A DNA stretch of 32,000 nt, from contig CAVTNR010000001.1 in the NCBI GenBank assembly GCA_963736115.1, positions 79,091 through 111,090 on the forward strand. Reading direction: 5' to 3'. The notes under the pieces are model-generated. The model saw nothing but the letters and a program-made list of their open reading frames with translations, was not told the origin of the DNA and ran no database searches. Origin of the DNA: an uncultured bacterium. GTDB lineage: Bacteria > Zhuqueibacterota > QNDG01 > DTFT01. How positions within the stretch are numbered: the first letter of the stretch is position 1; each line of letters begins with the position of its first letter. Shown one piece after another: positions 1 through 21,175 of this stretch. The translations under genes and the position numbers were made by a program.

Positions 1-1518
1 TTTAGAGTCATCACCCGTAATGTCGGTCAGAGCCCGAGTGGCCTGTTTTTTCACTTCTTTCAACCGCTTGAGGAGCTCCTCGAACACCTGGGGGCTGTCG
101 ATTCCCTGCTTGGCCCTTTCCATGATGGATACGAATTCAGTGATGATGGTGTTGACTCTCCGGGTCTCCTCCTGACGCTTGATCAGCATCGAACGGATGC
201 TCTGAAAGAAATGGATCGCCTGCTCGACCTGGGCGAGTAGTTGGGCCGGAACGGGCTGACCCGGATCGGCTGCGGCCTGTCGGGCAAATTGGCGGGTTGT
301 ATCCAGTTCGGAAAGAACCGTATCAATGTCCGGGAGGCGCTGGTTCTGGAACGCGTCGTTGAACTGGCGGAATCGGCAGGCGGCGGTCAGGAAACTGAGA
401 AATGGATATTCTGGAACGTACCGAAGCGCTGTGAATAAAATGCGCTCAGCGCCTGTAAAATCGCCTTGATTCATATGCTGTTGGGCCACTTGGACCTCGT
501 CCCGTACGATTAGGGACTGGAGTTTCTCCCGGTCCGCGGGCGATCCGGCCATCTTCACTTCGGAAATTTTCTTCGAGGAACCAAGCCGACCCAGCAGACC
601 ACCCGTTGAGAACTGCCTGAGATAGGCCTCGAACAACCGGGCTTCAGTGGTTCCCTTGTATCGGTCATCGACCTTCCCGAGCGCCCTCAATGCCCGCCCG
701 AATTCCTCCTTTTTGAAATGCTCGATGGCCGGATGCAGTGCCATGTACAGGAGCTGGGATTCCAGATCGTTTTTCAAGCCGTTCAGAATCGACGGTACGT
801 TGTGCCCGGCGACGCGGATCCCTTCCAGAACGCACTCGTACGCGGCGGCTGGGTTCCGCTGCCCCATCAGGAGGATCGCCTTGAAGGCATAGTATTCGGC
901 GCGGCTTGGATCGAGCTGCATCAGTTCGGACAGCTGGTTGAACAGCATGTTCGCGCTGAGGAGCATGAGAATGGGAAACTTGACGTAAACCTGGCCGCAG
1001 GCTTTCGTCTTCAGCATAGCGATCAGATCGGCGAGCGGTTTTCCCGTATGGGCGCCGTCTATGGAGGCGAGGATCCGCAGGGCGGTGATCTGCGTGCTGA
1101 GCGTTCCGATCGGAGAATCCGAGTTCAGGATGCACAGCGCCTTCAGGTACAGGGCCTCGGGATGGGCTGGTTTCTTGGCCAGGTAGGCATCGAGCTTCTG
1201 AACGGCTTCCTGGTATTCTTTTTTCTGAATGTGCGCTTTCGCCTGCTGCAGCAGTGCGATGTCCACGTCGATGAGACCGCCTACCTGACGGAAGGCATCG
1301 TCCGGCAGTATTTCCCCCAGACGCAGCGACTCATCCGACTTGGCACTGGCGGCCATTTTGTTGAGCTCCGCTTGGACGTCGAAGCCGTTCATCTTGGCCT
1401 TGCTGGGGTCGATGACCGGACCCTTCAGCACGAAACCTTCCTTGAACTCCGGCACCTTAGTGGAGACCTTCATCAACTCCGGTGCTTCAACGAACTGGCT
1501 TTCTTTAACGGCGGTCAT
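1..1518 (-). CDS. TPR-like helical-repeat protein; the C-terminus runs off the left edge of the window
   Basis: Absent from the ORF track because it is open to the edge. Hand translation from the ATG at 1518 gives MTAVKESQFVEAPELMKVSTKVPEFKEGFVLKGPVIDPSKAKMNGFDVQAELNKMAASAK... AAGGGA lies about 8 nt upstream. A TPR-like stretch is present: KEYQEAVQKLDAYLAKKPAHPEALYLKALCIL. No minus-strand ORF ending at 1518 is listed, consistent with an open frame through position 1 (506 codons). The plus-strand ORF 718..1917 is its antisense shadow. Confidence 0.7.
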   Translation of the reverse strand, partial: MTAVKESQFVEAPELMKVSTKVPEFKEGFVLKGPVIDPSKAKMNGFDVQAELNKMAASAKSDESLRLGEILPDDAFRQVGGLIDVDIALLQQAKAHIQKKEYQEAVQKLDAYLAKKPAHPEALYLKALCILNSDSPIGTLSTQITALRILASIDGAHTGKPLADLIAMLKTKACGQVYVKFPILMLLSANMLFNQLSELMQLDPSRAEYYAFKAILLMGQRNPAAAYECVLEGIRVAGHNVPSILNGLKNDLESQLLYMALHPAIEHFKKEEFGRALRALGKVDDRYKGTTEARLFEAYLRQFSTGGLLGRLGSSKKISEVKMAGSPADREKLQSLIVRDEVQVAQQHMNQGDFTGAERILFTALRYVPEYPFLSFLTAACRFRQFNDAFQNQRLPDIDTVLSELDTTRQFARQAAADPGQPVPAQLLAQVEQAIHFFQSIRSMLIKRQEETRRVNTIITEFVSIMERAKQGIDSPQVFEELLKRLKEVKKQATRALTDITGDDSK

Positions 1519-1529
1519 GGAGATTCCCT

Positions 1530-1757
1530 TTATTCTAGATCGATATTCTCAGGCTCCGGCACGTTTTCGAGTAGATGTTCGGCGGACCGCCGGCATAACT
1601 GGTATTCCTTCTCCTGGGTGATATCCGTCAGCTCAAGGATCGAGGATACGACGTTCATCTGTTCCGTCGAGAATTCCTCTGCTTTCGTGACGCTTTCGGA
1701 GCTCACAACCAGCGCTTCGAGCATCTTTTTCCTGTTGAGAGACTGGGTTTTGGCCAT
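1530..1757 (-). CDS. Small (75 aa) acidic helical protein, function unknown
   Basis: The ATG at 1757 is preceded by AAGAGGTGA (strong Shine-Dalgarno) embedded in the last codons of the upstream gene. It sits 3 nt after that gene's stop and 11 nt before the next start, so it looks translationally coupled. Confidence 0.55.
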   Translation of the reverse strand: MAKTQSLNRKKMLEALVVSSESVTKAEEFSTEQMNVVSSILELTDITQEKEYQLCRRSAEHLLENVPEPENIDLE

Positions 1758-1760
1758 GGA

Positions 1761-3659
1761 TCACCTCTTTTTCCTGGTTTCCTTCGGGGCGGCCGGTTTG
1801 ATCCTTCGCGTTTTCGCGGGTGGGCCTGCTTCCAAAAGGAGGATTTCCGCCGGCTCCGGGGTTAAAATACCTTCCTTTTCATCCTCCTCTTCAGGCAGCA
1901 GCACTTCGCCGGTGTAGACCAGAACCCGGTTGACTTTCGCCTCCACCTGATCGTAGGTGTCCTTGATCCGCTGAGTGTTTTCCGAAATCTCTTTCATCGA
2001 TTTTTCCAATTCCTCTTCGGCCTTTTTCCCCTTTCCGGCGGGGTCTTTCGATGCGCCGGCCTTGATCGCGCCGATGATGGCGCCCATCCGCTTACGGATG
2101 AATTCCTGCCGGGTGGAAAGGTTCTGAATGGTCGGCCCTTCGCCGCTGGTCGCCTGATCTTCGGTTATCATTTCCCCAAGGAGATGCCTGAAATGCGGGA
2201 AGGCTTCCAGGCGATGGATCAACTTTTCCTTCAGCTCCTCCTTCAGTACCTGAGGGACGCTTTTATTGTCCAGATAATTATTGACGATCGAAAAGTATGT
2301 TTTGATGGAATCCTTCTGGAGTTCGTCCAGTTTTCTTTCCCGCTTGATGATGAGGTCCACCTCGGGAACTAGCGAGCTCGATTTCTCGAGCATGTCCAGC
2401 GACTCCTCCCGAAGCGCATTGTGGAAGAAGAAATAATCGACCAGCCCCTGAATCAGTTTGGGGTCGGGCATTTCGGAATCGATGGCCATGACCTTGTTCA
2501 GGCGATCACGAAGGCTATCCCGTTCCGCAGGGGTCAGGCCCGATTTTTCGTCTTTTTCGCACCATTCGTGAATCAGGGAGACCGCATGCCAGAGAAGGAC
2601 GTTCCGGATCAGAAGGTCCTTGTCGTCAAGTTTGCGCTCGCCTTCACCCGCGTATTCATCGCCGCCGGATTTACCGGTTTTCGCCTTTTGCGATTGAGGA
2701 TCCCCGTAGTCTTTTTCGAGCTTTTGTACAATACCCATCAGGGGTTTCCGCAGCTGGCTCCGTTCTCCGGAACACCACCGGCAGAGCAGAAGTCCGATTT
2801 CGGCGTTCATCGTCGAACGCTTCTCCTGCGTCGCCCGTGCTTCCGCCGCCTCGAAATATTCCCTGGCCTGGAGGAATTCCTTGTTGAAAAGCGAAACAAT
2901 GCCCAATGTGACCTGGTGATCGCTGATACTTCCGGGAACCCGGTCTGCATGCACGCCCAGACTCCGTACGCGGTCAAAGTACTGAACAGCCTCCTTGATT
3001 TCGCGCTTTTTCCAGTGTTCTTTCCCGAGATTGAAGCAGGCGATGCTCATCAGCTCCTTCGATTTGAGAAAATCCTGGAGTGCATCCTGGTTGGTATCGT
3101 ATATCTCATAAGCGTACTTGTATTTCTCCACTTTTACTTTCGCCCAAAGGTCCAAATACTGAACCGCCGGATCCGATAGGTTTACCCTAGACAGGTCCTC
3201 TATCGTCCCGCTGCAGTCGTCTCGCAGGGCGCGGAGGTAGGCGCGCGCAAAATAGGCCTCATCGAGGTCGTTCTGTTTGAGCCCTGAGGTGATGGCCTTT
3301 GTCAGCAGATCCTCCGCGTCCGTATACTCGGTTCTCCTCTCCTGATCGATGATCCGGAGCGCCTGAAGCAGGGGTTTTCTTTTCTTCGCGGGCTGAATGA
3401 TCGAGAAAAAAAGAATGAGCCCCAGAATCACCAGGATCAGAAAACCGAGCACGGTACCGCCGATCAGGATCAGACTTCTGTCTATTCCGGCGAACAGTCC
3501 CTTTTTCTCTCCGGCTGATTCTTCGGTCAGACCGGTTTCTGCGGCGCCGCGCCCGGAAGGGGATACTGCCGGAGTTCCCGATGGTCCGGTTTCGGGCGGA
3601 ACGGAAGCCGAACTGTCGGCCGGGCCGACGGTTGTCCATGTGTGGTCCGGCTTGAGCAA
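1761..3659 (-). CDS. Single-pass membrane protein with a Pro/Ser/Thr-rich N-terminal stub, one TM helix and a large cytoplasmic TPR-like/helical-repeat domain
   Basis: 632-aa ORF with a TTG start as listed. TM segment LILIGGTVLGFLILVILGLILFFSII is followed by KKRK (positive-inside). Long alpha-helical repeat-like sequence (e.g. EAYFARAYLRALRDD, KEAVQYFDRVRSLG) and a Lys/Glu-rich tail. The true N-terminus is uncertain (see finding on 3527-3814). Confidence 0.75.
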   Translation of the reverse strand: MLKPDHTWTTVGPADSSASVPPETGPSGTPAVSPSGRGAAETGLTEESAGEKKGLFAGIDRSLILIGGTVLGFLILVILGLILFFSIIQPAKKRKPLLQALRIIDQERRTEYTDAEDLLTKAITSGLKQNDLDEAYFARAYLRALRDDCSGTIEDLSRVNLSDPAVQYLDLWAKVKVEKYKYAYEIYDTNQDALQDFLKSKELMSIACFNLGKEHWKKREIKEAVQYFDRVRSLGVHADRVPGSISDHQVTLGIVSLFNKEFLQAREYFEAAEARATQEKRSTMNAEIGLLLCRWCSGERSQLRKPLMGIVQKLEKDYGDPQSQKAKTGKSGGDEYAGEGERKLDDKDLLIRNVLLWHAVSLIHEWCEKDEKSGLTPAERDSLRDRLNKVMAIDSEMPDPKLIQGLVDYFFFHNALREESLDMLEKSSSLVPEVDLIIKRERKLDELQKDSIKTYFSIVNNYLDNKSVPQVLKEELKEKLIHRLEAFPHFRHLLGEMITEDQATSGEGPTIQNLSTRQEFIRKRMGAIIGAIKAGASKDPAGKGKKAEEELEKSMKEISENTQRIKDTYDQVEAKVNRVLVYTGEVLLPEEEDEKEGILTPEPAEILLLEAGPPAKTRRIKPAAPKETRKKR

Positions 3660-3844
3660 GACCTGTGCGCGCCCTTCGTCCGGGCGAGTTCGTCGGCCAC
3701 CGACGGAGCGGCGAGTATCGCCACAAGGAGAAGGATCGTCAGCCCCATGGCTTTCGTCCGGCTATTTTGTCCCATCGGAAGTTTGTTTCGGAAAATCCGC
3801 CTTGATCGCCGCATTTTCCCCTCTTTCCTTTTTTCTGGATACCG

Positions 3845-5038
3845 TTACCGTCTGCAGTCTGTCAGCATTTTCTCGAGCTGGAGGATCCGGCTGCCGAAAC
3901 GCTCGATGACCGCGGGCTCGACGCGCCGCGGATCCGTGACGGGATATCGTGCGACCGTGGACAAGGCGTTTTTAATCCCGTCCAGGAAGGCGCGAGCAGC
4001 CTCGAACTTGCCGGGGCTCTCCGGGATTTCACCGATCAACGCTTCCGAGTACAGCAGGGTCCGCGGAAATTCCCACCACATGAAGGTTGGCTGCCCTCGG
4101 GACGGGTCCCCACTTGCACTGGATGAGTAGTAAAGGTACGGGTGAAGAACCTGCTGGGCATTGACAAACTGGCCCTTTTTAATGAAATAGGACGTCACTT
4201 CCATGAACAGTCTGTCCCTATCGGTGGTTGGAAGCGCATGATAATCACGCCACGCCATGGCGATCATCTTGGCCGGGCTGTCCATCTGAATCTTCGACGG
4301 CGCGTCGGTGTGGTCCGGACCGGTCCAGTTGAGAAGAATCGCGAGCTGCAGCCGGTGGGATTCGATGTTCCCGGCGGGAGCCGATTGGACGGCCCGTTCG
4401 AGCCATTCCAAGCCAGCAACCGCGTCCTGAAGATCCTCCTTTGCGATCCTTCCGGCTAGTAGAAGGAGATCGAACCGGCTCTCTCCCAGACAGACATCCC
4501 CGATGAAATCGATGGCCTTTTGAAACCGTTTTTTAGCCCGGAGGTCTTCCACGACGGCTCGGGGATCCAGGCGGTCTGCGAGGTCCCGCAGCTTGACGGC
4601 CGCCTGGGCTGGATCCGCGTCTGCTCGGATCCGGGGATCTGGATCCAGTGCGGTCCGTACCATGTGCACGACTTCCGGATACAGATCGACCCGGTCGATC
4701 CAGATAGGCATTCTTTTCGTGAGCCCCTCCGGCTCGAACAGGGTGCTGGACGCCCCTTTTTGAATGAGCAAGAAGGGGTCTTCCGTCGCGCTCCATGAAA
4801 AGAGGCATTGCATCATCATAACCCCGCACACGTAAATATCGAGGTTTCGGTCCCGGATCATTTTTCGGTTCCCCCGGATGAGTTCGGGGGCCAGAAATGG
4901 GATTCGGGAGGGTTCGGCGAGCAGTGTTTCGAAACGCGGCCAGTACCCCAGGACGGAAGCGCCAGCAGAACCGGCCACTGATCCTTGAATACGATGTCCG
5001 CAGGCATGGGGTAATTCACTTCCCCGTTCGTCTCCCAC
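3845..5038 (-). CDS. Protein-kinase-like C-lobe plus TPR-like C-terminal domain; probably the 3' part of a frameshifted pseudokinase gene spanning 3845..5427
   Basis: Kinase subdomain VIII/IX signature RIPFLAPELIRGNRKMIRDRNLDIYVCGVMMMQCLF, then LDPDPRIRADADPAQAAVKLRDL (subdomain XI-like), then helical repeats. An internal ATG at 4861 forms an ATGA overlap with the stop of ORF 4858..5427. Confidence 0.7.
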   Translation of the reverse strand: MGDERGSELPHACGHRIQGSVAGSAGASVLGYWPRFETLLAEPSRIPFLAPELIRGNRKMIRDRNLDIYVCGVMMMQCLFSWSATEDPFLLIQKGASSTLFEPEGLTKRMPIWIDRVDLYPEVVHMVRTALDPDPRIRADADPAQAAVKLRDLADRLDPRAVVEDLRAKKRFQKAIDFIGDVCLGESRFDLLLLAGRIAKEDLQDAVAGLEWLERAVQSAPAGNIESHRLQLAILLNWTGPDHTDAPSKIQMDSPAKMIAMAWRDYHALPTTDRDRLFMEVTSYFIKKGQFVNAQQVLHPYLYYSSSASGDPSRGQPTFMWWEFPRTLLYSEALIGEIPESPGKFEAARAFLDGIKNALSTVARYPVTDPRRVEPAVIERFGSRILQLEKMLTDCRR

Positions 5039-5427
5039 CAGACGGGCAGGGAACCGGCGACCTTCGACATGAGGAAAAGGCGGTTCCGTGGGTCGGCTTC
5101 GGACAGCAGTTCGAGCATGCTGCGTCCGCTTGTTTCATAGGCCACGTAGAAAAACAGGCTGCCCTGCACCGTCACGTCGCCGGTCTCCACGATCTGCGCC
5201 AGTCCCTGCCTTTGCGGTTTGCCGATCCACCCGTCTATTTCCGAGCGTTGGGTGAGCGACAGGACATCGTCGATCGGAAGGAGGCGGAAATACCGACTTC
5301 CGGATGCCTCCCGGTACACATAACCCCGCAGGCTCGGGCCCACGTATTCGAGCCGCTCGCCGGCCCTGCCGACCTGTAGCGTCGCGGGCGGGTTCAGCGG
5401 GTCATTTTTTCGCTTTTGCGTAGACAT
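4858..5427 (-). CDS. Protein-kinase-like N-lobe fragment lacking catalytic residues; probably the 5' part of the same frameshifted pseudokinase gene
   Basis: 189-aa ORF overlapping the Hsp70 3' end by 26 nt. N-lobe-like beta-rich sequence (LEYVGPSLRGYVYREASGSRYFRLLP). NYPMPADIVF sits where HRDxKxxN is expected and ALPSWG where DFG is expected. The last ~30 aa (GTGRVSKHCSPNPPESHFWPPNSSGGTEK) look like out-of-frame sequence. Confidence 0.6.
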   Translation of the reverse strand: MSTQKRKNDPLNPPATLQVGRAGERLEYVGPSLRGYVYREASGSRYFRLLPIDDVLSLTQRSEIDGWIGKPQRQGLAQIVETGDVTVQGSLFFYVAYETSGRSMLELLSEADPRNRLFLMSKVAGSLPVWWETNGEVNYPMPADIVFKDQWPVLLALPSWGTGRVSKHCSPNPPESHFWPPNSSGGTEK

Positions 5428-7444
5428 CTTCGAGTGTGTCTCCCAAGTCTTCCAGCTTCTCGCCGGTAATTCCGGAATTCAGGGCTGATATGAAATCGCT
5501 GAACGCCTTGAGTAGGTTTGTGTCCGTCTCCTGGAGCAGATGTTTCTGCGTCCGACGGACGATGGATTTGAACTGTTCCGGAACGGGGAGTGCGGGTTCC
5601 GGAATTCCTCCCGCGGCCGGTGCTCCCTGGGCAGGCTCGGGCTTTACCGGAGTGGTGGGGGAACCGGGAGAAGGCGTCGCCGGTCCCGGCGCTGGCTGTT
5701 GCGGCTGGGATCCGGGTACGGCTCCAGGCTGCGGGGGAGGGGTGAAGCCGCCCGGACCGGATGGACCCGGCTGCGGGGGGACCTGGACACTGCCGTGGGC
5801 ATATAGACCGAGCAGTGTGTTTCGCTTCTGGATCAAGGCGGCGTCTCCCCCGATGCCCGTCTTCTGCTCGAATTTCATTTCATACTGCTTCCCGGTCTGC
5901 ACGTGGAAGACCACCATGGTCAGGAGTCCGTTGACGTCGAGCTTGAAAGTCACTTCGAACTTGTGAAATCCTTCCGGCTTGGGATCGACGTTCTCGATGG
6001 TGAGCTCGCCGATCGGTGTGTTCTCGAAAACAAACTCGCCTTCTCCCTGAAATACAACCGCTTTGATCCGCGTCGCATTCTCCTGATTGCCGAATATGTC
6101 GTTCTTCACTTCGATTGGGATGTTGCTGCCTTGAGCGATCATCCGCACGCACCTACCGCCCGCGACGCCGACCCCGAGCGAATGCTCCGTGATCAGGCGG
6201 ATCTGCTGGTCGTCCACGGACTGGGCGTTCAATTTCAACGATTCATTCCGGCGCTTGATGTCGAATTCGCCCTCGGTGGGAGCGAATCGCTTTGCCAGTA
6301 TCGCCGCGCCCCGGGCGACCACGGTGTCCGGATTGAGTTCGCTTTTGACGAAGCTGTCATCCTTCTTGAAATAATCGAGGAGCATTTCCTTGACCTTGGG
6401 GATTTTGCTAGAGCCGCCGACCAGGAGAATCGCATCCACCTGGTCCCGGTCGATCCCTTTCTGCTCCCGGGCGTTGCTGATGGCCTTGTCGACGTAAGTG
6501 AGGGACTTGCGAAGGAGTCCGTCGATCAGCGACAGAAAGACATCTTTCGTCAGGACCAGCTGGAGCTCGTGTTTAATTGATTCGAGCGACATCGTCGCGG
6601 ATTCGTTGTAACTCAAGGCGATTTTGGCCGGTTCCGAGACCGATTTGATCTTCGCCTTCGCCAGAGGGTCCGCGCCTACATCGATTCCCTGTTTGCGGAG
6701 CTCTTCGACCGCCCATTCCACGATGGCATTGTCGAAATCCCCACCGCCGAGACGCGGATCGCCGGCCGTCGCGATGACGTTCAGATTGCCCGTTTCAACC
6801 TGGATGATGGACACGTCAAAGGTTCCGCCCCCGAGATCGTACACGAGATAGGTTTTTTTCTCCGTCTCCTCCCGGTCCACTCCGTAGCAGATGGCCGCGG
6901 CTGTCGGTTCCGGGATGATCTGCCTCGGGTACAGCCCGGCGAGCAGGGCGGCTTCTTCAGTCGCTTTCTTCTGCGGCTCCATGAAGTAGGCGGGCACGGT
7001 CACCACCGCGTCGTGGATTTCCTCCCCGATCTCCCGCTCGGCCACTTCTTTCATCTTCATCAGGATGAACGCACTGATTTCCTGGGGCAGCATCCATTCC
7101 CCTGCAAAAAACACTTCCACAGGTTGTCCGATCTTGCGGGCGTTCTGGGCCCGGAATCGTTCCAGGGCGTTGTTTTTCTCTGAGAACAGCTCGCCCATTT
7201 CCCGCTTGATTTCTATCACGGTGTCCTCGGGGCGGACGGGGCAATTTCGCTTGGCAGCAGCGCCCACGATGACCTTGCGGAGCATCTGGTCCGTGCTGAC
7301 GACCGAAGGGGTCGTTTCGGGATTGGTGTCCGATTCGGGGTTCTTGATGATTTCAGCCTGTTCAGTATAGGTATTATAAGAAGCCACGGCCGAATACGTC
7401 GTACCGAGATCGATACCGATCACCTTGTGCATTTTGTCGTTCAT
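5402..7444 (-). CDS. Atypical Hsp70/DnaK-family ATPase: complete NBD and beta-sandwich SBD, with the helical lid replaced by a Pro-rich linker and a short helical tail
   Basis: [33 protein letters not shown] and [13 protein letters not shown] are Hsp70 actin-fold signatures. [10 protein letters not shown]...[13 protein letters not shown] is the SBD-beta. The ~70-aa [11 protein letters not shown]...PEPALPVPE linker follows. ATGA overlap with the upstream GrpE-like ORF at 7441-7444. Confidence 0.95.
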
Positions 7445-7800
7445 GATTTTGCTCCTTGACTGGTGTGTGCGGCGCTGTCCTTGTGCGAACGGTTTTTATC
7501 ACGGTCCGAAACCGGACGGGTCTTCCCGATAATGACCCGGCAGGGCCTAACCAGAACCTGGCCCGCCCTGTACCCGGATTGTTCGACCCGGATCACCTTT
7601 CCCTCATCACCTTCGCCGTACCCGAGGCATTCCATGGTCAGAGGATCGAAATCAGCCCCGGGCTGAACCTCGAAAGGGGTATAACGGAGGGCCTGGGTGA
7701 TGCCGGTGAGAAGATCGAGTATGGAGTCCGTATTTTTCAGGAACTCCTTCTCGTTTTCGCTGCCTGAGTAATGACGTTTCATCGACTTCAGGGATTCCAT
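7441..7800 (-). CDS. GrpE-like nucleotide-exchange factor, C-terminal (beta-domain) part; frame is open upstream of the listed start
   Basis: DFDPLTMECLGYGEGDEGKVIRVEQSGYRAGQVLVRPCRVIIGK matches the GrpE pattern FDPxxHEA...V..GY...G.VLRPA.V.V. Upstream in the same frame the sequence reads DRKEFIGRSTFNALIPAMESLKSM, which is like the GrpE LLPVLDNLERAL helix. Confidence 0.75.
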   Translation of the reverse strand: MESLKSMKRHYSGSENEKEFLKNTDSILDLLTGITQALRYTPFEVQPGADFDPLTMECLGYGEGDEGKVIRVEQSGYRAGQVLVRPCRVIIGKTRPVSDRDKNRSHKDSAAHTSQGAKS

Positions 7801-12710: not shown

Positions 12711-12725
12711 GGCGTATCATCCCAC

Positions 12726-13739: not shown

Positions 13740-13756
13740 GGCGTCCTCCTTATTGT

Positions 13757-16024
13757 TCAGGCCGGCCGAAGGGTCAGCCGTTCGTCCGAATCCGCATCAA
13801 CGATCCAGACGGCTGAAGATCCGGCCCGGTTTTTTCTCAGGAATTCCATGAAAGCCTCCGCGGCCAGCGACCGCGCCTCCTCGATGATCGCGCGGGCCCC
13901 GAATGCGAGGACGTGTGTGTCCATCCGTCCAATCACCCGCGATCCGACCGAAGGTTCCACCCGGACTTCGTCTACGTTCATCCGCATCCGTGACGCGGCC
14001 GCCCAAATCGAAGCGCGTATGGCGCGTTCGACGATCAGAGCCAGGGCGGGTCCGTCCAGCGGCCGGAACAGGATGGGTGTCCCGATCCGGGATAGAAAAG
14101 CGCCGGAGAAAAGATCCCGGATTTCGGAAAGGACCGTGTTCCGGATCTCCCGGTCGGAGGTCTGATCCTGAAATCCGATGCGTTTCCGCACTCCCTCGTC
14201 CCTTCCATTGGGCAGATTGATGGTGAACGCGAAGACCAGGTTGGCGCATGAGAACATCGTGCCCGAGGCGCTCTGGCCTTCGCCGGTCTCCAGGATCTGC
14301 AGGAAGATATCCGCAATGGCGGAGCGGACTTGGGGTGGCGCATGATCCAGGTCGCTCACCTCGACGAGGGCTCCGGCGTGATGTTTGGCGGCTTGTTCCA
14401 GTCGTCCGCTCTGGTAGGAGCCCACGATACCGCGTCCCGAGCCGAGAAGCTGGGCCGAGGCTGTGTAGAAATCGGGTATACTCGCAGCATCGATGTTGAT
14501 GTAGGGAATGCCCAGTTCCCGCGCCACCAGGACGGCGCTCTGGGATTTTCCTGTGGCCGGCGTGCCCTGGGCGCAGTAGCGGATGGGCTGGTGATCCGGC
14601 CGGGTCAGGCATTCCATTCGTAACCTCGCCACCAGCTGGTCGATGGCGTCGTCCTGGGCCAGGATTTCGGTCTTCACGACATCCGCCAGGTCAGACCGGG
14701 TCAGCACGGCGTTCAGACGTTCCTGGACATGCTCCAGTCGTCCGCCGCGGGGGCGGTTGGGCAGACCTGAAAAAGTCTCGGACAGTTCATGTATATCCGT
14801 GGCGAAATCCCTGGCAGGTCGCGGAGGCGAGCCTCCGGCCTGAAGGATGTTCCATTCCCGCTGGACCAGCGCTGTCAGCACCCGGACCCGGCCCGAGGCC
14901 GGAAGGTCCGAGAGGGCCGACCGAATCCGGTCGAACAATCCGGATTTCAGCGCCGCCGGCACGCCGCCCGATTTCCAGCCGACCTGATCGATTGAAAACC
15001 GGATCATCGAATCCTCCGGGATGTCCGGGGCGTGGCGGATAACCGGCAACAGGGGATCACTCGTACCGCCCTGCCCGCCGTGGAACACCGATTGGAGTTG
15101 CGGATAGTTGCCCGTGAAAATGACCTGTTTCCCGGAGCCGGCCAAAAGTTGAAGCATGGTCTGCACTTCGTTGGCCATCTCGTAGGGATTGATTCCGAAA
15201 TTCAGGCATGCCGCGGGTACGGCCACAATGCCGGGAGCCTTGCCGGCCAGATCCACAAGTGTTTTTCCGTTCAGGGACGGCACCATCAGGCGTCCCACCG
15301 TTCCGCCGGCCGAGGAGAGATGCCGGGCCAGGTGGGCCAGAAGGTAATCCCCGGCGACCGGGTGCTGTATCGCGACGGCGATGGAGAGGGATCCGCTCAT
15401 GAAATCGATCACCTGCCCGCACCAGGCGTCGAGAACCGGGGCGAAGGCGTCATCCGATTCCTTTCCCGGAAGGATGCATTCCAATATTTCGGAAATGTTC
15501 TTGTACCGTTCCAGCAGATCCGAGTCCGCAAGATCCTCGGGCAATTCGTCCTGAAGCGCAATGGCGGCGGATTCAAGATTCTTCAGCTCCGAGAGGAATA
15601 CCCCGGAGCGTGTGGGCGTCATCGGGATCGCCTGAACCCGCATTTCGACCCACAGCGATGACTGACCGGAATCCGTCGTCTGGGCGGGAGGAATGAGGCG
15701 GACTTTATCGCCGAAACGGGACAGATGGGCGAACAGATTTTCGGCGGAGATCCGGACCGAGCGGGGCGCTTTCAGAAGTTCGAATTGTATTCCGAGGACC
15801 CCGTCTTCGACAAGCCGGCAGGTGATGGCGCTGAGACCCTTCCGTCGGTTTTTTTCGCCCGGTCCGGTCCGGAAGGATTTTCCATCCGGCGCGACCGCCA
15901 TTTCGATCGGAACAGCCTGACGGATCAGGCCGATGATCTGGTGAATGACGATGGCCGGATCCGGGCCGTCCGGGGTTTTGGAATTCCAGCTTGAGACGGT
16001 CGGCTGTTTGAATCCGGATGTCAT
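13757..16024 (-). CDS. ClpA/ClpB-like AAA+ protein: novel N-terminal region, degenerate D1-like ring, D2-type module with Walker A and ClpB_D2-small-like C-terminus
   Basis: The ORF track starts at a GTG (16054). The ATG at 16024 has AGGAGA 5 nt upstream, so it is the preferred start. D2 shows Walker A GTPATGKS (14542-14565), ALVEVSDLDHAPPQVRSAIADIFLQILETGE (compare [23 protein letters not shown]), ANLVFAFTINLP, and FLSRIGTPILFRPLD (compare FLNRIDEIIVFxPL). The segment GIVAVPAACLNFGINPYEMANEVQTMLQLLAGSGKQVIFTGNYPQLQSVF resembles Clp D1 but has no P-loop. Confidence 0.85.
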   Translation of the reverse strand: MTSGFKQPTVSSWNSKTPDGPDPAIVIHQIIGLIRQAVPIEMAVAPDGKSFRTGPGEKNRRKGLSAITCRLVEDGVLGIQFELLKAPRSVRISAENLFAHLSRFGDKVRLIPPAQTTDSGQSSLWVEMRVQAIPMTPTRSGVFLSELKNLESAAIALQDELPEDLADSDLLERYKNISEILECILPGKESDDAFAPVLDAWCGQVIDFMSGSLSIAVAIQHPVAGDYLLAHLARHLSSAGGTVGRLMVPSLNGKTLVDLAGKAPGIVAVPAACLNFGINPYEMANEVQTMLQLLAGSGKQVIFTGNYPQLQSVFHGGQGGTSDPLLPVIRHAPDIPEDSMIRFSIDQVGWKSGGVPAALKSGLFDRIRSALSDLPASGRVRVLTALVQREWNILQAGGSPPRPARDFATDIHELSETFSGLPNRPRGGRLEHVQERLNAVLTRSDLADVVKTEILAQDDAIDQLVARLRMECLTRPDHQPIRYCAQGTPATGKSQSAVLVARELGIPYINIDAASIPDFYTASAQLLGSGRGIVGSYQSGRLEQAAKHHAGALVEVSDLDHAPPQVRSAIADIFLQILETGEGQSASGTMFSCANLVFAFTINLPNGRDEGVRKRIGFQDQTSDREIRNTVLSEIRDLFSGAFLSRIGTPILFRPLDGPALALIVERAIRASIWAAASRMRMNVDEVRVEPSVGSRVIGRMDTHVLAFGARAIIEEARSLAAEAFMEFLRKNRAGSSAVWIVDADSDERLTLRPA

Positions 16025-16077
16025 ACGTTCTCCTGTTCTGGGTGATCCAGCCACCCGATCCGGATAAGGACAAAAAA

Positions 16078-16095
16078 AAGGCCAGTTTTATAATG
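16078..16095 (-). promoter_or_regulatory. Weak sigma-54-like -24/-12 element upstream of the ClpB-like/MoxR/vWA operon
   Basis: The minus strand reads cTGGCCtttttTTGTcc. GG and G are correctly spaced against TGGCAC-N5-TTGC, but the invariant C of the -12 GC is a T. It lies about 55-70 nt upstream of the ATG at 16024 and next to a divergent sigma-54-activator-type gene. Confidence 0.2.
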
Positions 16096-16143
16096 ACCTG
16101 ACCGGGTTGCAGTTAGGCGACGCATGGGGTTGAGTTTTCCCGG

Positions 16144-16172
16144 TTGATTTATATGGGACAATGCACTAAATT
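16144..16172 (+). promoter_or_regulatory. Sigma-70-like promoter candidate for the regulator/NUDIX/RelA-SpoT operon
   Basis: TTGATT (16144-16149), 17-nt spacer, TAAATT (16167-16172), about 60 nt upstream of the ATG at 16232. A back-to-back minus-strand candidate TTTACA-N18-TATAAA (16177..16148) overlaps it. Confidence 0.3.
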
Positions 16173-16231
16173 GTAAATAATACCGCGTGCAGATCAACTG
16201 CCGGACCCAAACACCACCCCGCGGGAGGATC

Positions 16232-17887
16232 ATGGAATACCAGGCCCTGCGATTCGAAGACCCGGACCGTCCGACATGCTGTACCCTCAGCGCGGAGACC
16301 GCCGAAGACATCCTTGAAATCAGGAAGGGTCGTCTTCCCGTTGTTTATCTGCTCGCGGACGACGCCATCGACCGCTTCACCGGATACCCCGCCCTGATCC
16401 GCGACCGCGGAACCAAGCACAAGAAAAAATCCCTGTCCGACCTGCTTCTCGGTTACGACCGAATCTGCATGATCCGGGGCTCCTATGAAGGAATCCGCCA
16501 GCTGATCCGGAGCTGTAACGATCTCCTGAAGAACGCCCGGGTTCAGGCGGATCAGAACGCGTTCCTCATTTTCATTCCCGACGGTCCCTTCATCCGTCTG
16601 TGGAATCGAACCAGCGGGAGCGGAACGCGCGCAAGGGACACGGGCAGATCCCTCGATCCCGGGACCCGGTCCGAGCTTCCCGGGATGCTTCCGATCCAGG
16701 AGGTTCCCCCGGAACTAAACGAAAGCTATCTGGGCCATTCGGAAGATGTTCGGCTGGTCCGGCAGTTGATCCTCGTCGCGGCCCGCTGTGAGAATCCGAT
16801 TCTGATCCTGGGCGAATCCGGAACGGGCAAAGAGATCGCGGCCCGGAGCATACACCAGTTGAGCCTCCGGCGTAATCTCCGGTTTGAGGCGGTCAACTGC
16901 GGCGCACTTCCCACAAACCTGCTCGAATCCATTCTGTTTGGACACAAGAAGGGCGCATTCACCGATGCCAAACGGGACAAAAAGGGTTCCTGGGAACTGG
17001 CGGGAAAGGGGACGCTTTTTCTGGATGAGATCGGCGACCTGTCGCTGGAGAATCAGGTTAAAATTCTGCGCGTTCTCTCCTCCGGCCGGATTCGCCCGCT
17101 CGGCGCTGACGAGGATGTCGCCGTCCATGCGCATGTCATTGCCGCGACGAACCGGGATTTGTTTTCGATGGTACAGGCAGGACAGTTCCGGGAGGACCTG
17201 TATTACCGGCTGCGGTCTTTCCTGATTTTCACTCCTGCCCTGAGAAACCACCCCGACGACATTCCGCTGATGGCGCAAAGTTTTTGGAAGAAAATCACAC
17301 GAGACGATTCGGCCCGCCTTCCGGCCTCCGTGCTGACCGAGATGAAGGCATACCCCTGGTACGGGAACGGCCGGGAGATGAAGAACCTGCTCTCACTGCT
17401 GTACGGTCTTTTCGGAAGGGTTCCGCTAGGCGTGGAACATTTCAGGGCGGTTTACCGGTATCAGCGGAATGACGCGCGTCCACGGAAGGGCGCTCCGGAC
17501 GGGAATGATCTCTCGATGCACCGGGCCGAGTGCCTCCAGCACCTGAAACGGACGGATGAGGTCCTGCGGGAGGTGCAGATGGCCGTTCAGCCGCATCTCA
17601 AGAAAACGAGCCGGACTCCGGCCGACACGCGGACGACCGTTGCCCTGATCGAAAACCGGATTTACGAGCTCGAGACCCTGTGTCTCCATCCCGTTCTTTT
17701 CGTCCATCCGGAGCTGTATCAGCGGATCCGCGATTTAAGCGCGGAACTGGTCGGTCTGGTCCGGCATTTGAGAAAATCGAGCGGTGCGGTGAAGGCATAC
17801 TGGGCCAAACATCTGGATGGCCCTTGTCAGGAAACCCAGCGAATGGTCTTCCGGGAAGTCGGGAAGCTCATGCGGACTCGGAAATAA
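16232..17887 (+). CDS. Sigma-54-interaction-domain AAA+ regulator (bEBP-like) with an unknown N-terminal sensor region, GAFTDA loop variant and no recognisable C-terminal HTH
   Basis: The ATG at 16232 has GGGAGG 4 nt upstream (the track start 16187 is a less likely upstream extension). Signatures: ILILGESGTGKEIAARSIH (Walker A), GTLFLDEIGDL (Walker B), GAFTDA at 16952-16969, REDLYYRL. The last ~150 aa show no Fis-type HTH pattern. Confidence 0.9.
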   Translation: MEYQALRFEDPDRPTCCTLSAETAEDILEIRKGRLPVVYLLADDAIDRFTGYPALIRDRGTKHKKKSLSDLLLGYDRICMIRGSYEGIRQLIRSCNDLLKNARVQADQNAFLIFIPDGPFIRLWNRTSGSGTRARDTGRSLDPGTRSELPGMLPIQEVPPELNESYLGHSEDVRLVRQLILVAARCENPILILGESGTGKEIAARSIHQLSLRRNLRFEAVNCGALPTNLLESILFGHKKGAFTDAKRDKKGSWELAGKGTLFLDEIGDLSLENQVKILRVLSSGRIRPLGADEDVAVHAHVIAATNRDLFSMVQAGQFREDLYYRLRSFLIFTPALRNHPDDIPLMAQSFWKKITRDDSARLPASVLTEMKAYPWYGNGREMKNLLSLLYGLFGRVPLGVEHFRAVYRYQRNDARPRKGAPDGNDLSMHRAECLQHLKRTDEVLREVQMAVQPHLKKTSRTPADTRTTVALIENRIYELETLCLHPVLFVHPELYQRIRDLSAELVGLVRHLRKSSGAVKAYWAKHLDGPCQETQRMVFREVGKLMRTRK

Positions 17888-17911
17888 GCGGAAGAAAGGA
17901 CTGGCCCATCC

Positions 17912-18352
17912 ATGAATTCGATACGACCGTTCTCGCTCTCCATTAAAGGCCTTATTTTCAACGCCGATGGGCGCTGCCTGATTCTGAAACGATCGACGCT
18001 GAACAGAAATTACCCGGAGAAGTGGGAGCTTCCGGGCGGGAAACTGAATCCCGGTGAGTCGTTCGCTGACGCGTTGTGCCGGGAGGTTTCGGAGGAAACC
18101 GGCCTGCATATCGAGATCGACCATCTGGCGGGCGCGGTGGAATCGGAGCTCCCCGATTGGAGAATCGTGCATCTGGTCATGACCGCCCACACGATACCGG
18201 GTGAAATCCGGCTGAGTTCGGAACACACGGATTACGCCTGGGTGGCGATAGACGATTTGGCGGAGTTGGATATGCCGGAACACTTCCTCCGGTTCATCCA
18301 TGAGTACCGTAGAAAGGAGGGACTCCATGCCGGTGCGTCGCGGCCTCGTTAA
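17912..18352 (+). CDS. NUDIX hydrolase
   Basis: The Nudix box GX5EX7REUXEEXGU is present as GGKLNPGESFADALCREVSEETGL. 146 aa. It starts 24 nt after the regulator gene and overlaps the start of the next gene. Confidence 0.9.
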   Translation: MNSIRPFSLSIKGLIFNADGRCLILKRSTLNRNYPEKWELPGGKLNPGESFADALCREVSEETGLHIEIDHLAGAVESELPDWRIVHLVMTAHTIPGEIRLSSEHTDYAWVAIDDLAELDMPEHFLRFIHEYRRKEGLHAGASRPR

Positions 18353-20834
18353 ACAGCAGATCGGAAAATACAGCCAGGAGTACAGGCATTACGAAGTGTA
18401 TTCACAGGTTCTAAGGAAAATACTGGAAGCGGCATGCCGGCAGGCCGCTCCGCTGGCCATCGTGCAAACCCGCGCGAAAACCGTCTCGAGCTTCGCGGAG
18501 AAAATTATCCGCAAGCCGACCGCGGACCCGGTCCATGATTTTACGGATCTTTGCGGGGCCCGGGTGATCACGAACACCAAAACTGAAGTCGATCGGTTGT
18601 GCGGGTTCATCCGTGCGAATTTCAATATCGATGAGCAGAACAGCCAGGATACTTTCGAACGGCTGAAAACGGCGGAATTCGGTTATCTGTCCGTCCATTA
18701 CATCGTGCAGATCGACAGGAAGGAGATTCTCGGCATCCCCATTCCGGAATCGATCGGCGCGAGAAAGGCGGAAATTCAGGTCCGGACCCTGCTTCAGCAT
18801 GCCTGGGCGAATATGAGCCATGACCTGATCTACAAGAACCGTTTCGAAGTACCCAGGCGATGGACCCGAAGCCTGGCGCGCACTTCGGCCCTGCTGGAAC
18901 AGGCCGACGGTGTATTCGACGAGGTGCTCGGGGAACTCGATGCATACCGGCTCCATTACGGCATCTTGTCCGAACATTCCAAGAGGGACGAGGAACTGAA
19001 GAATCTCGAATTGATTCTCGAGAATGAACCGGTCGAATCGCACAAGCCCGCAATCGCGCTCCGGATCGCCCGGCTGCACAAGACCGGCTGGAACTGGGAG
19101 GGGATCATTGACCGGCTGGGACCGTTCTCCGCCCGGAAATGCGGCGAGAGGCCGGAGATTCTCATGGAGTACGGCTATGCCATTTGCAGGAAAAACAAGG
19201 ACAATCCCGGCGGCAGGGTTTATCTGAAAGGCCAGAAGCTTCTCGCGGAAGCGGCGGAATCGGGTGCGGGTGAGAATCACAGCGATGCGATATGCCATTA
19301 CGCATGGTCTTATGAGAACATCAAGGGTCGCGAGCAGAAGGCCCGGAAACTGTACCGGCAGGCCCTCGACGCGGATCCGAAAGATCCCTATGCGCTCGCT
19401 TCCTTTCTGGAGTTTGAATTATTCTGCAGCCGTGACGACCGGTTCATACCGTACATGAAACCGACTTTGCTGCAGGCCGTCGAAACCTGCCGGGCCCACG
19501 TCAGGGCCGGGATGGAACTCCCGTGGGCCTTTTTCACCATGGGTAAAATGCATCTGCTCCTGGGCCAGCCGTATGAAAGTCTCGCGGCGGTCGCGACCGC
19601 CATACACGTCTGCCTGGGAACCGCGACCTGCGTGCCGCGGGACGTTTTTCAGGAGCAGCGGAATTTCCTGCGGCGCATCAATACCGGAAGGGAGTGGCCG
19701 CCCGCGCATCGGTGGGTCGATAAGACGCTGATGCTTGCGGAAGCCATTCGATCGCCGGACGGCCGTGCCCTGCGCCAGTTGAAGGAAATGCGGAGGAGGC
19801 AAAAATCCTTTGCCGGACCGGTCGTTATCGTGGCGGGCGGCGCGGATTCATCCGTCCAGGGGAAAATGGCGGAATACCGTCTGCCGTTGATGCAATCCTT
19901 CGACGGTTTTTCCGGCACGGTCGTTTCCGGGGGCACCCGGGCCGGGATTCCGGGACTGGTCGGAGAAATGGCGCGAAAAGTTTCAGGTCGGAAAAGCGGA
20001 GGGCTGTTTGCATTGGCCTATCTTCCCGGTAAAATGCCGACCGGTGTCCAGATCGATCCGCGTTATCATGAAACCGTCATTCTGGAAGGAGACGATTTCA
20101 CCCCGGACCAGCCTATTCAGAACTGGATCGACATGATCGCGTCGGGCATCAAACCTTCCGAAGTGAGGGTGCTGGGCATTAACGGGGGAAGGATTGCCGC
20201 TTTCGAGTACCGCCTGGCCCTCGCGCTCGGCGCCCGCGTGGGAATCGTACAGTCCAGCGGAAGAGCCGAATTGGATTTGCTGAAGGAAGCCAGATCTACC
20301 GCGATAAAAAATCTGGTGTGGCTTCCCGCGGACGCCATGACCCTTCGGGCGTTCGTCAATCCGGGCCTGACAGTGATGTCGCCCGGCCATCTGGAAAGCG
20401 CGGGCAAAGCCATTCATACCGCTTTTTTGGTTGAGAACCGGCATCGAATCGTCGATCGGGCCATGCTCCCGTGGGAGGAATTGCCCGAGGACCTGAAGGA
20501 GTCCAATCGGAGCCAGGCGGCCTATTCCGTTCAAATTCTCAAGGCGGTCGGTTATGGTGTCCGAAAAGCCGCTTCGTCCCGCGTCTCCATTCGGTTCACA
20601 CGCAGTGAAATTGAAACCATGGCCGAGATGGAGCACGGCCGCTGGGTTGTTGAAAGGCTGGGAAGCGGGTGGAAATATGGTGAAAAAAGGGACCCGGTGA
20701 ACCGAATTAGTCCCCACCTGGTGCCGTGGAAAGAACTCGCGGACAAGTTCAAGGGATATGACCGCATCGCCGTGTGCAAATGGCCGGCTCTGCTGAAGGA
20801 TGCGGGATTGGAGATTTATCGACAGAAACGATAA
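18327..20834 (+). CDS. Multidomain RelA/SpoT-type nucleotide pyrophosphokinase (alarmone-synthetase fold) - TPR - SLOG (TRPM/LSDAT-like) - tandem RyR-domain protein
   Basis: The ATG at 18327 has AGGAGG 6 nt upstream (the track start 18300 is in frame, 9 codons earlier). RSH motifs: RAKTVSSFAEKIIRK, DLCGARVIT, FGYLSVHYIV, AEIQVRTLLQHAWANMSHD. TPR-like region at about 18990-19710. SLOG at about 19810-20340: VVIVAGGADSS, VVSGGTRAGIPGLVGE, VLGINGGRIAAFEYRLALALGARVGIVQSSGRAELDLL. RyR at about 20400-20820: MLPWEELPEDLKESNR and MEHGRWVVERLGSGWKYGEKRDPVNRISPHLVPWKELADKFKGYDR. Confidence 0.85.
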   Translation: MPVRRGLVKQQIGKYSQEYRHYEVYSQVLRKILEAACRQAAPLAIVQTRAKTVSSFAEKIIRKPTADPVHDFTDLCGARVITNTKTEVDRLCGFIRANFNIDEQNSQDTFERLKTAEFGYLSVHYIVQIDRKEILGIPIPESIGARKAEIQVRTLLQHAWANMSHDLIYKNRFEVPRRWTRSLARTSALLEQADGVFDEVLGELDAYRLHYGILSEHSKRDEELKNLELILENEPVESHKPAIALRIARLHKTGWNWEGIIDRLGPFSARKCGERPEILMEYGYAICRKNKDNPGGRVYLKGQKLLAEAAESGAGENHSDAICHYAWSYENIKGREQKARKLYRQALDADPKDPYALASFLEFELFCSRDDRFIPYMKPTLLQAVETCRAHVRAGMELPWAFFTMGKMHLLLGQPYESLAAVATAIHVCLGTATCVPRDVFQEQRNFLRRINTGREWPPAHRWVDKTLMLAEAIRSPDGRALRQLKEMRRRQKSFAGPVVIVAGGADSSVQGKMAEYRLPLMQSFDGFSGTVVSGGTRAGIPGLVGEMARKVSGRKSGGLFALAYLPGKMPTGVQIDPRYHETVILEGDDFTPDQPIQNWIDMIASGIKPSEVRVLGINGGRIAAFEYRLALALGARVGIVQSSGRAELDLLKEARSTAIKNLVWLPADAMTLRAFVNPGLTVMSPGHLESAGKAIHTAFLVENRHRIVDRAMLPWEELPEDLKESNRSQAAYSVQILKAVGYGVRKAASSRVSIRFTRSEIETMAEMEHGRWVVERLGSGWKYGEKRDPVNRISPHLVPWKELADKFKGYDRIAVCKWPALLKDAGLEIYRQKR

Positions 20835-21122: not shown

Positions 21123-21175
21123 TTATGGATAGCTTCGGAAAACTCTTCCTTCCGTCCAGAATTCGGGAGGTTCCC

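Follow-up and report, generated by a model that had tools for sequence, protein, structure and literature searches.

The 32,000-nucleotide (nt) stretch of DNA analysed here, hereafter the window, comes from an uncultured bacterium (GTDB lineage Bacteria; Zhuqueibacterota; QNDG01; DTFT01) and corresponds to positions 79,091 to 111,090 of the forward strand of contig CAVTNR010000001.1 in assembly GCA_963736115.1. Its first 20,834 positions hold three gene sets: module A (16232-20834, plus strand), with genes for a sigma-54-type activator, a NUDIX hydrolase and a RelA/SpoT homologue (RSH) fused to TPR, SLOG and RyR domains; cassette B (9437-16024, minus strand), four genes for a ClpB-like, a MoxR-like and a von Willebrand factor A (vWA) protein and for an orphan protein, p377; and module C (1-8877, minus strand), with genes for J-like, GrpE, Hsp70, kinase-like and TPR proteins. 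Comparison of gene neighbourhoods argues, at about even confidence on our part, for three separable, horizontally shuffled gene modules of conflict or defence type and not for one machine. Two of the three modules seem undescribed, and they recur together often enough to suggest a functional link that is real but optional. By neighbourhood and promoter evidence, the activator belongs with cassette B, and the two are conserved as a unit. A PADLOC scan (PADLOC 2.0) matched none of the three modules to a model and gave only generic, weak or partial hits for ten proteins; an NCBIfam scan of ten window proteins yielded generic or weak matches only, and an Rfam search of the window yielded none.

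Listing and translation of the open reading frames (ORFs) confirmed the gene order, strands and junctions reported in an initial annotation of this DNA, together with its AT-rich break and its 207-bp divergent region. From 16024 down to the left edge all genes make up one unbroken minus-strand array, and the plus strand carries three genes beyond the divergent gap (16025-16231), which separates the ClpB-like gene from the activator gene. Within the cassette the ClpB-like and MoxR-like genes are 17 nt apart, the MoxR-like and vWA genes 15 nt, and the vWA and p377 genes overlap by 11 nt. The cassette and its control elements are as follows.

16232-17887, plus strand: sigma-54 activator-type AAA+ protein (bacterial enhancer-binding protein, bEBP), Sigma54_activat 2.5e-59, the hub of modules A and B
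16069-16084, minus strand: degenerate -24/-12 element of sigma-54 type, TGGCCT-N5-TTGTC, ahead of the ClpB-like gene; conserved in locus L001
13757-16024, minus strand: ClpA/B/C-like tandem AAA+ protein (ClpB-like), AAA_2 3e-7, with N-domain, D1 without P-loop, and D2
12726-13739, minus strand: divergent MoxR/CobS-type AAA+ protein, AAA_5 6.7e-5
10560-12710, minus strand: vWA protein, N-terminal region of about 470 amino acids (aa) and C-terminal vWA domain with a metal ion-dependent adhesion site (MIDAS), D508xS510xS512...D619
9437-10570, minus strand: p377, orphan protein of 377 aa (263 representatives); its structure model is confident and matched no known fold

When one genome from each GTDB species (185,579 species genomes) was scanned by pattern, the cassette was found in 38 loci, all in metagenome-assembled genomes (MAGs) and spread over at least eight phyla; the host groups are Nitrospirota, Bacteroidota, Acidobacteriota, several Desulfobacterota orders, Brocadiia (Planctomycetota), Lentisphaerota/Victivallales and Pseudomonadota. 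About 50 full-length relatives of the ClpB-like protein were recovered, each of roughly 750 aa. As seen by tblastn with the window proteins and by ORF clustering, the order ClpB-like, MoxR-like, vWA, p377 is kept in essentially every locus with room for it, and gene content downstream of p377 differs between loci. Twenty-three cassette loci have flanks of 4 kb or more on both sides (full-flank loci); in 15 of them an orthologue of the activator, full-length including its N-terminal domain, is adjacent to the cassette and mostly divergent from it. The sequence TGGCAC-N5-TTGCW, with at most one mismatch, stands on the coding strand 25-285 nt upstream of the ClpB-like start in 13 loci against 0.36 expected (background 0.011 per 450 nt), and the whole searched 1.34 Mb holds only 32 such sites. 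The notion that the activator belongs with the cassette is thereby borne out by adjacency and by promoter enrichment.

In the window itself a search for the sigma-54 consensus with up to two mismatches found nothing relevant. The degenerate form TGGCC(T/C)-N5-TTGTC, shared by the window and L001, was recognised only by comparing the two. L001 is the closest relative locus of the window, its proteins being 70-86% identical to those of the window at the aa level; L121 is the contig on which L001 lies. The two divergent regions (16025-16231 in the window, 9815-10000 in L001) also share GTTGAT ... ATCAAC half-sites and a AAATCAACC(G/C)G motif, which could be sites for the activator or for a repressor; an inverted-repeat search of the divergent region was unconvincing.

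The surroundings of the cassette look like a defence island, a point on which the initial annotation had asked for a check. Of the Pfam families among the 99 nearest neighbours (two per side) at 33 non-redundant cassette loci, TIR_2 comes first with seven occurrences; TPRs, STAND-type AAA_16/NPHP3_N, WD40 and RyR come after it. The ClpB-like family had no relatives on IMG/VR contigs and tblastn against PLSDB plasmids was also empty, so that there is no evidence for phage or plasmid carriage.

The remaining two genes of module A were assigned as follows, and Pfam agrees with the earlier domain calls for these as for the activator.

17912-18352, plus strand: NUDIX hydrolase, NUDIX 1.5e-19, complete Nudix box
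18300-20834, plus strand: RelA/SpoT synthetase-TPR-SLOG-RyR fusion of 844 aa, RelA_SpoT 1.5e-18, LSDAT_prok (SLOG) 1.1e-6, RyR 8.7e-15

The NUDIX gene (to 18352) and the RSH gene (from 18300) overlap. In an alignment of six RSH fusions the synthetase motifs RxKxxxSxxxK, DLxGxR, GYxSxH and EIQVRT are invariant, as are the glycine-rich motifs of SLOG, and no HD (hydrolase) domain was matched in the fusion. A scan with this alignment returned at least 365 metagenomic relatives, and neighbourhoods were counted for the 80 best of them, which cover the full architecture. In 46 of these 80 loci a NUDIX gene is found no more than 300 nt from the RSH gene, giant TIR/STAND/TPR/WD40 proteins are encoded in 38, and TIR-like ORFs were found within 10 kb in 27 and at 600 nt or less from the RSH gene in 16, the TIR counts coming from a home-made hidden Markov model seeded with Pfam-validated TIR domains, without a genomic background rate. 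By this distribution the NUDIX/RSH pair is a widespread autonomous module. None of the papers compared, which did not include the 2015 SLOG/LSDAT paper (Burroughs et al.), describes an RSH-SLOG-RyR fusion, and an earlier mention is possible.

Several other genes adjoin RSH-SLOG-RyR genes. Clp-type two-ring ATPases do so, three of them with a separate YbjN gene beside them: in L092 (3-2930), L095 (3406-6413) and L113 (953-3763) a YbjN gene is followed by a two-ring Clp-type AAA+ gene with an active-looking D1, close upstream of the RSH gene and on the opposite strand, making up a second, different Hsp100-type partner of RSH. Atypical Hsp70 paralogues adjoin RSH-SLOG-RyR genes on unrelated contigs (L118, 3630-4964; L113, 9145-11787; L120, 14026-15927), and one RSH-adjacent Hsp70, directly downstream of the RSH gene, is a fusion of the Hsp70 nucleotide-binding domain (NBD) with TIR. 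In L050 (3968-7756) a 1262-aa fusion of NUDIX, ARMT1-like phosphatase and CofD-like parts is encoded near such a gene, and in L071 (4856-9535) and L067 (4786-9795) an activator of the family is followed by a WD40 giant of 1560-1670 aa, NUDIX and RSH-SLOG-RyR, with no MoxR/vWA cassette visible.

The RSH fusion can be compared with two known kinds of system. Thoeris consists of the TIR protein ThsB and ThsA effectors with SIR2-SLOG or Macro domains. Like Thoeris, the present module has a SLOG protein often encoded beside TIR proteins, and a TIR-made nucleotide would activate a SLOG-gated effector; unlike Thoeris, the effector part is a RelA/SpoT pyrophosphokinase and not SIR2 or Macro/transmembrane, TPR and RyR domains are present, and the partner is a NUDIX enzyme. 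No adjacent TIR (ThsB) gene is present inside the window, and the PADLOC Thoeris models gave no match. As in the toxSAS toxin-antitoxin modules (Jimmy et al. 2020, PMC7229694), the RSH protein is of the synthetase-only kind and keeps every synthetase motif, and its gene overlaps that of a nucleotide hydrolase in a bicistron; by analogy with toxSAS-hydrolase pairs the NUDIX enzyme could neutralise the RSH product. It differs in being an 844-aa multidomain fusion whose partner is NUDIX and not a small alarmone hydrolase or a proteinaceous antitoxin.

From the cassette side RSH fusions are found beside the cassette in the window, L001, L007, L010, L015, L016 and L017, in varied positions and orientations; of the 80 RSH loci, one (L099) has the full cassette and six have an activator of the family. 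Recurrence of RSH-SLOG-RyR/NUDIX beside the cassette in unrelated lineages, which the idea of a common system called for, is therefore documented in L007, L010, L015, L016, L017 and L099. A further connection lies in the RyR domain, which stands at the C-terminus of three kinds of protein in these loci: RSH-SLOG, AAA/STAND-like and TrkA_N-type. RyR proteins occur in 12 of 39 cassette loci and in 10 of the 23 full-flank loci; all ten of the latter have the activator, against five of the 13 without RyR (Fisher p=0.003, near-duplicate loci included). The RyR-capped TrkA_N (NAD-binding Rossmann) and AAA/STAND-like proteins are of about 630-1000 aa (L019, 16597-18495; L065, 621-3611; L015, 1846-4698; L054, 4585-7092), the one in L015 carrying two RyR copies. 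Such tagging resembles the principle of the 'effector-associated domain' (EAD) in related conflict systems. For the possibility that A and B act jointly, this co-occurrence of RyR and activator is the strongest evidence, and with moderate confidence we read it, from gene content, as facultative coupling of the two through the activator and RyR-domain partners.

It could instead be that beyond the activator-cassette pair adjacency reflects island clustering, the NUDIX/RSH pair being a fully autonomous unit of toxSAS or Thoeris type that came to lie behind the activator gene by chance. This would agree with the presence of RSH/NUDIX without the cassette in 79 of 80 metagenome loci, with the generic clustering of defence genes and with the varying position and orientation of the RSH gene relative to the cassette. 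However, at least six independent juxtapositions are seen in different phyla, the activator stands beside RSH/NUDIX without a visible cassette in L041/L071, L056, L067 and L114, and no full-flank cassette locus has a RyR protein without the activator. In the window (24 nt), L001 and L015, moreover, short gaps separate co-directional activator, NUDIX and RSH genes, and we consider clustering of this kind an unlikely account of the whole.

What the cassette might do has to be read from its proteins. The profile of the ClpB-like family matches only the D2 module of ClpC, ClpA, Hsp104 and ClpB (1.6e-16). D2 keeps the Walker A motif GTPATGKS, the sensor-1 Asn, the Arg of an 'SR' motif, a GAR sensor-2 and the D2-small domain; its Walker B has S-D where Clp proteins have D-E, and its pore loop reads GIVG as against GYVG. 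The AlphaFold2 (AF2) model (mean predicted local distance difference test, pLDDT, 79.5) aligns over about 640 columns to the D1+D2 bodies of ClpA/ClpC (Foldseek 2.5e-22, ClpA), and residues 180-420, approximately, are therefore taken as a D1-like module, in which the P-loop is absent. Residues 23-160 form an additional alpha+beta N-domain. The hallmarks of ClpB/Hsp104 disaggregases (two active AAA+ rings, Clp_N domain, M-domain and GYVG pore loop) were not found, there being no Clp_N match and bit scores of 34-67 against cut-offs of about 1000. The YbjN+Clp gene pairs adjoining RSH genes had raised the idea that the N-domain is a fused YbjN; this was rejected at an hhalign probability of 0.1 and with no YbjN Pfam match in 21 family members.

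The MoxR-like family profile matches CobS (4e-8), the MoxR-like protein 2r44 (2e-4) and McrB (2e-4) in the PDB. Its P-loop is GPTGSAKT (GPTGSAK[ST] in the family), and the Walker B region reads LREM, that is L-R-E with the Asp replaced. In a subset of cassettes the gene is split at the core/lid boundary into ORFs of about 248 and about 100 aa (L002, 12201-13216; L009, 4546-5563; L010, 12308-13341; L028; L032; L033). The junction has an internal AAGGAGG Shine-Dalgarno sequence, with an ATGA stop/start overlap in L002 and L010, and the split has the look of a true fission of the gene into translationally coupled halves rather than of an error. In the vWA family the DxSxS...D pattern of the MIDAS is invariant; a Pfam VWA match was obtained for one of 24 members (7e-4), and the family profile had no match in the PDB. 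The MoxR-vWA pair named in the initial annotation is thus backed on the MoxR side by the AAA_5 and CobS matches and on the vWA side by the motif and this single Pfam match. The further claim that the chaperone-like set is largely catalytically altered holds for the MoxR-like protein and for D1 and D2 of the ClpB-like protein, and fails for Hsp70, whose ATPase motifs are intact.

A set of 15 billion proteins contains 168 close homologues of p377 and, at 50% identity, 263 representatives; all relatives are stand-alone proteins of about 350-400 aa, never fused and invariant in architecture, and no distant relatives were found in this set. The AF2 model is confident (pLDDT 89, predicted template modelling score 0.83); profile search of the PDB gave no match, and Foldseek with the model returned nothing significant from either PDB or BFVD. 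Its top fold match, the metallopeptidase DPP III, was judged too weak (E=0.06, prob 0.69). Conserved His, Glu and Asp positions are H175, E176, H222, D224 and E245.

The closest described architecture is that of the MoxR-vWA 'ternary' conflict systems, of which four types were defined by Kaur, Burroughs, Iyer and Aravind (2020, eLife, PMC7159879) and in which the third core component is VMAP, iSTAND, an FtsH-type tandem AAA+ protein or a beta-propeller. Their simple FtsH type has a tandem AAA+ protein with an inactive N-terminal copy, a MoxR P-loop GXXXTAKS, a divergent vWA protein with a large helical N-terminal domain, and a stand-alone uncharacterised effector (PMC7159879). Cassette B likewise has a MoxR-clade AAA+ protein and a third conserved component, beside a divergent putative vWA protein with a large N-terminal extension; its tandem AAA+ protein has a dead N-module and a live C-module (a likeness by analogy only), its MoxR P-loop is a variant of the ...[ST]AK[ST] form (GPTGSAKT as against GXXXTAKS), and its fourth gene, p377, is stand-alone and uncharacterised, and the system sits among TIR and STAND proteins. 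In contrast to the FtsH type, the tandem AAA+ protein is of the Hsp100/Clp D2 type (AAA_2, GAR sensor 2) with best matches to ClpC/ClpA/ClpB. The cassette also departs from the ternary systems in its sigma-54 control, dedicated activator and RyR partners, the terms 'sigma-54' and 'RyR' having no occurrence in PMC7159879, and no radical SAM (rSAM), ubiquitin-like (Ubl) or EAD components of ternary systems were seen with it. As to variable effector modules around a preserved core, the picture is mixed: p377 is invariant, the genes after it vary, and so do the RyR accessory proteins (RSH, AAA, TrkA_N). Since cassette B mirrors the ternary architecture but has a Clp/Hsp100-type ATPase, we file it as a variant and not as a member of a described subtype.

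The same proteins may be read differently, with cassette B not a conflict system but a device for stress or maturation that is under sigma-54 control and akin to CbbQ/O, NorQ/D or CobS/T. We regard this as distinctly unlikely, also in its detailed form, in which MoxR-vWA and the Hsp100-like ATPase activate or cofactor-load a client enzyme, p377, and TIR, STAND and RSH genes are coincidental island cargo. In its favour the best solved relative of the MoxR-like protein is the chelatase subunit CobS, p377 is never swapped for other effectors, it has five conserved His, Glu and Asp positions and, as a weak top fold match, a metallopeptidase (DPP III), and sigma-54 regulons are typically of stress or metabolic nature. 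On the other hand, the cassette is scattered unevenly over the phyla, in about 38 of 185,579 species genomes, TIR is the top neighbouring family and is joined by STAND, TPR and WD40 giants, RyR- and RSH-type accessory proteins recur, and Walker B is degenerate in both ATPases; nor is there a metabolic operon consistently linked to the cassette among its loci.

Module C was compared with its relatives in the same way, and its features and the break that separates it from cassette B are given below.

8878-9436, no strand: AT-rich intergenic break between modules B and C, 559 nt, GC 0.39 as against 0.60 in the window
8257-8877, minus strand: first gene, 206 aa ('J-like'), conserved in L121 and L039
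7441-8260, minus strand: GrpE-like gene, its frame broken by 1 inserted nt near 7860; the C-terminal part (7441-7800) matches GrpE at 5e-9
5402-7444, minus strand: Hsp70 paralogue, HSP70 5e-118, intact NBD and substrate-binding domain beta
3845-5427, minus strand: kinase-like gene, its frame broken by the loss of 1 nt near 4953; uninterrupted in L001 (522 aa)
1761-3814, minus strand: TPR membrane protein, frameshifted; from tblastn with the 680-aa L121 homologue, weak TPR matches
1533-1757, minus strand: conserved 75-aa ORF, 74.7% identical to a 75-aa gene of L121, also in L039 and L040
1-1518, minus strand: TPR protein running off the left edge, 506 aa visible, TPR_16/TPR_19; 73.5% identical to residues 1-506 of a 699-aa L121 protein

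Sigma-70-like hexamers are enriched in the break, and no terminator was found there. The Hsp70 protein keeps all ATPase motifs in alignment with Hsp70/DnaK, and a Pro-rich linker and helical tail stand where the lid would be; at 388 bits against the 648 of the DnaK/HscA equivalog cut-off it is classed as a paralogue. The labels of J-protein and kinase given earlier were left unconfirmed. The 206-aa protein had no Pfam match at E<=1 and only coiled-coil noise in a PDB profile search for a J-domain, its one reminder of the HPD motif being an 'HPSD' string near the C-terminus, and the kinase-like protein, with six homologues in 5.8 billion proteins, reached Pkinase E=0.36. The supposed 185-nt gap before the TPR membrane protein proved to be the signal/transmembrane N-terminus of that protein in another frame (frame -2 at 3602-3814, body in frame -1 at 1764-3668, shift at about 3640). 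DNA alignment revealed the shift in the GrpE-like gene, which is intact in L001 (269 aa, GrpE 2.2e-12), and the deposited call of the kinase-like gene (P0176, 338 aa) shows that its frameshift is present in the public assembly. All three single-base frameshifts fall in the Hsp70 gene set and every other long gene of the window is intact, a clustering with P of about 0.02 if errors were randomly placed; module C is probably decaying in this genome.

In L121 and L039 the operon runs 206-aa protein, GrpE, Hsp70, kinase-like, TPR, 75-aa, TPR, Peptidase_M48, TIR and a giant TPR protein of about 1400 aa. The copy in L040 has no M48 gene, begins within Hsp70 and has no cassette directly upstream. In the window the operon is cut by the left edge, so that a TIR gene, if present, lies outside; from synteny with L121 we infer one there. 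Module C resembles DnaK-DnaJ-GrpE and the GAP1-N2 GTPase systems (Kaur 2020, PMC7159879) in joining an Hsp70, its own GrpE-like factor and a TPR or J-type partner in a conflict-type operon, the J label being unconfirmed. It differs in that no GTPase or tubulin gene was seen in it, and kinase-like, M48, TIR and giant TPR genes stand there instead. Synteny points, with chances that we would call balanced, to a rare independent TIR-bearing operon, an island neighbour of cassette B that adjoins it only in the window and L001.

The synteny of window and L001 extends well past the modules, into genes unrelated to the finding: a PKD protein of 1621 aa with about 15 PKD repeats (21125-25990, 85% identical to its L001 counterpart), followed at 25831-28341 by a LysM/FecR/Glucodextran_B protein and then two histidine kinases.

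The initial annotation had proposed that the whole 20 kb is one system, in which a nucleotide messenger made by RSH, acting directly or by way of the AAA+ regulator, would control a joint effector arm of MoxR/vWA/ClpB-like and Hsp70/GrpE/kinase-like proteins. The entire arrangement is indeed conserved in L001/L121, both halves are linked to TIR proteins, atypical Hsp70s including the Hsp70NBD-TIR fusion stand beside RSH-SLOG-RyR in L113, L118 and L120, and the TIR gene of related Hsp70 operons could feed the SLOG sensor. Yet L001 is a close relative, and the 70-86% identity and shared PKD flank mean that its synteny is not independent evidence; tblastn with the window proteins found no Hsp70 set in any of the 36 other cassette loci; the next-closest MAG, JW906, has both on different contigs with different flanks, an unrelated gene standing upstream of the operon in L039 and other genes downstream of p377 in L011; the 559-nt break separates B and C; and C has three frameshifts while A and B are intact. 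A single 20-kb system is for these reasons very unlikely. The neighbourhood analysis splits the region, and the proposal is only partly supported: the activator stays with the cassette and RSH/NUDIX is a facultative companion, whereas the Hsp70/GrpE/kinase-like set, expected to co-occur with the cassette across unrelated genomes, is syntenic with it only in the window and L001.

The AAA+ core of the activator is typical (GESGTGKE, LFLDEI, loop GAFTDA), and its best PADLOC/NCBIfam matches are of RtcR/PspF type. The N-terminal domain of about 170 aa and the helical C-terminal domain of about 150 aa are specific to the family, neither having a Pfam or PDB match, and residues 403-566 gave no match to HTH_8 or any other Pfam family even at E<=1. 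Like the bEBPs RtcR and PspF, the protein has the sigma-54-interacting AAA+ core and is encoded divergently from a target operon with -24/-12 elements; unlike them it has no HTH_8, CARF or receiver domain and has a variable GAFTGA loop, diverged in about half of the family.

A number of observations weigh against the three-module reading favoured here. The activator is without a recognisable DNA-binding domain, the conserved helical domain of about 150 aa sitting in its place. Its GAFTGA loop reads GAFTDA in the window and is strongly diverged elsewhere (GTMPNS, GSHATA, HYLPEI and others, for example in L003, L004, L007, L017 and L027), yet L004, L007, L017 and L027 have a near-consensus -24/-12 promoter at the cassette. 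The element in the window is itself degenerate, with four mismatches and GT instead of GC at -12. A and B stand together in a minority of cases (about 8 of 119 loci; 1 of 80 counted from the RSH side), the co-occurrence statistics include the near-duplicates L019/L021/L025 and L032/L033 and are uncorrected for relatedness, and the TIR counts have the home-made basis given above. On the protein side the vWA assignment rests on its motif and p377 offers no functional clue. Finally, all homologues come from MAGs or metagenomes, the components being known from sequence alone.

The best explanation, to which we again give about equal weight for and against, is a defence-island-like stack of three separable modules, with all functional steps inferred. 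Module B would be an undescribed Hsp100-type relative of the MoxR-vWA ternary systems, and its sigma-54 promoter would be served by a dedicated ATPase of enhancer-binding type in which the sensor and C-terminal domains are novel. After induction the MoxR-like and vWA proteins may act as a nucleotide-gated clamp whose MIDAS site binds a peptide, the Hsp100-like ATPase with its single active ring may remodel or release the partner, and p377 would be the likeliest effector or client. In module A the SLOG domain of the RSH fusion would sense a nucleotide, plausibly from flanking TIR proteins as in Thoeris, and then switch on the RelA/SpoT pyrophosphokinase; alarmone or nucleotide depletion would arrest growth as with toxSAS, and the NUDIX enzyme would remove the signal and set the threshold. 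Coupling of A and B may follow from the place of the activator gene in A's operon in the window and from C-terminal RyR domains that mark the accessory proteins of activator-bearing cassettes.

One may speculate further that these steps form a multi-tier relay, in which TIR proteins, including that of the Hsp70 operon, produce an ADP-ribose-derived signal on infection that passes through SLOG to the alarmone synthetase, from there to the activator without helix-turn-helix domain and finally to the effector complex of cassette B. The activator would be triggered by the alarmone or by the RyR-tagged protein itself, giving an inducible, transcriptionally amplified immunity of Thoeris type with a chaperone-type effector. 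Both the relay and this form of triggering strike us as highly improbable as they stand.

The stack of three separable modules in one region illustrates that physical stacking of this kind should not be read as a single system. If the assignments are true, the sigma-54-inducible MoxR-vWA-Hsp100 cassette would add another type of ATPase and another way of control to the predicted ternary systems, the RSH-SLOG-RyR/NUDIX pair would connect Thoeris-type signalling to alarmone synthesis with bacterial RyR domains as adaptors, and the rare Hsp70/GrpE/TIR operon would be a third candidate system. All three modules are small enough for cloning and phage challenge.

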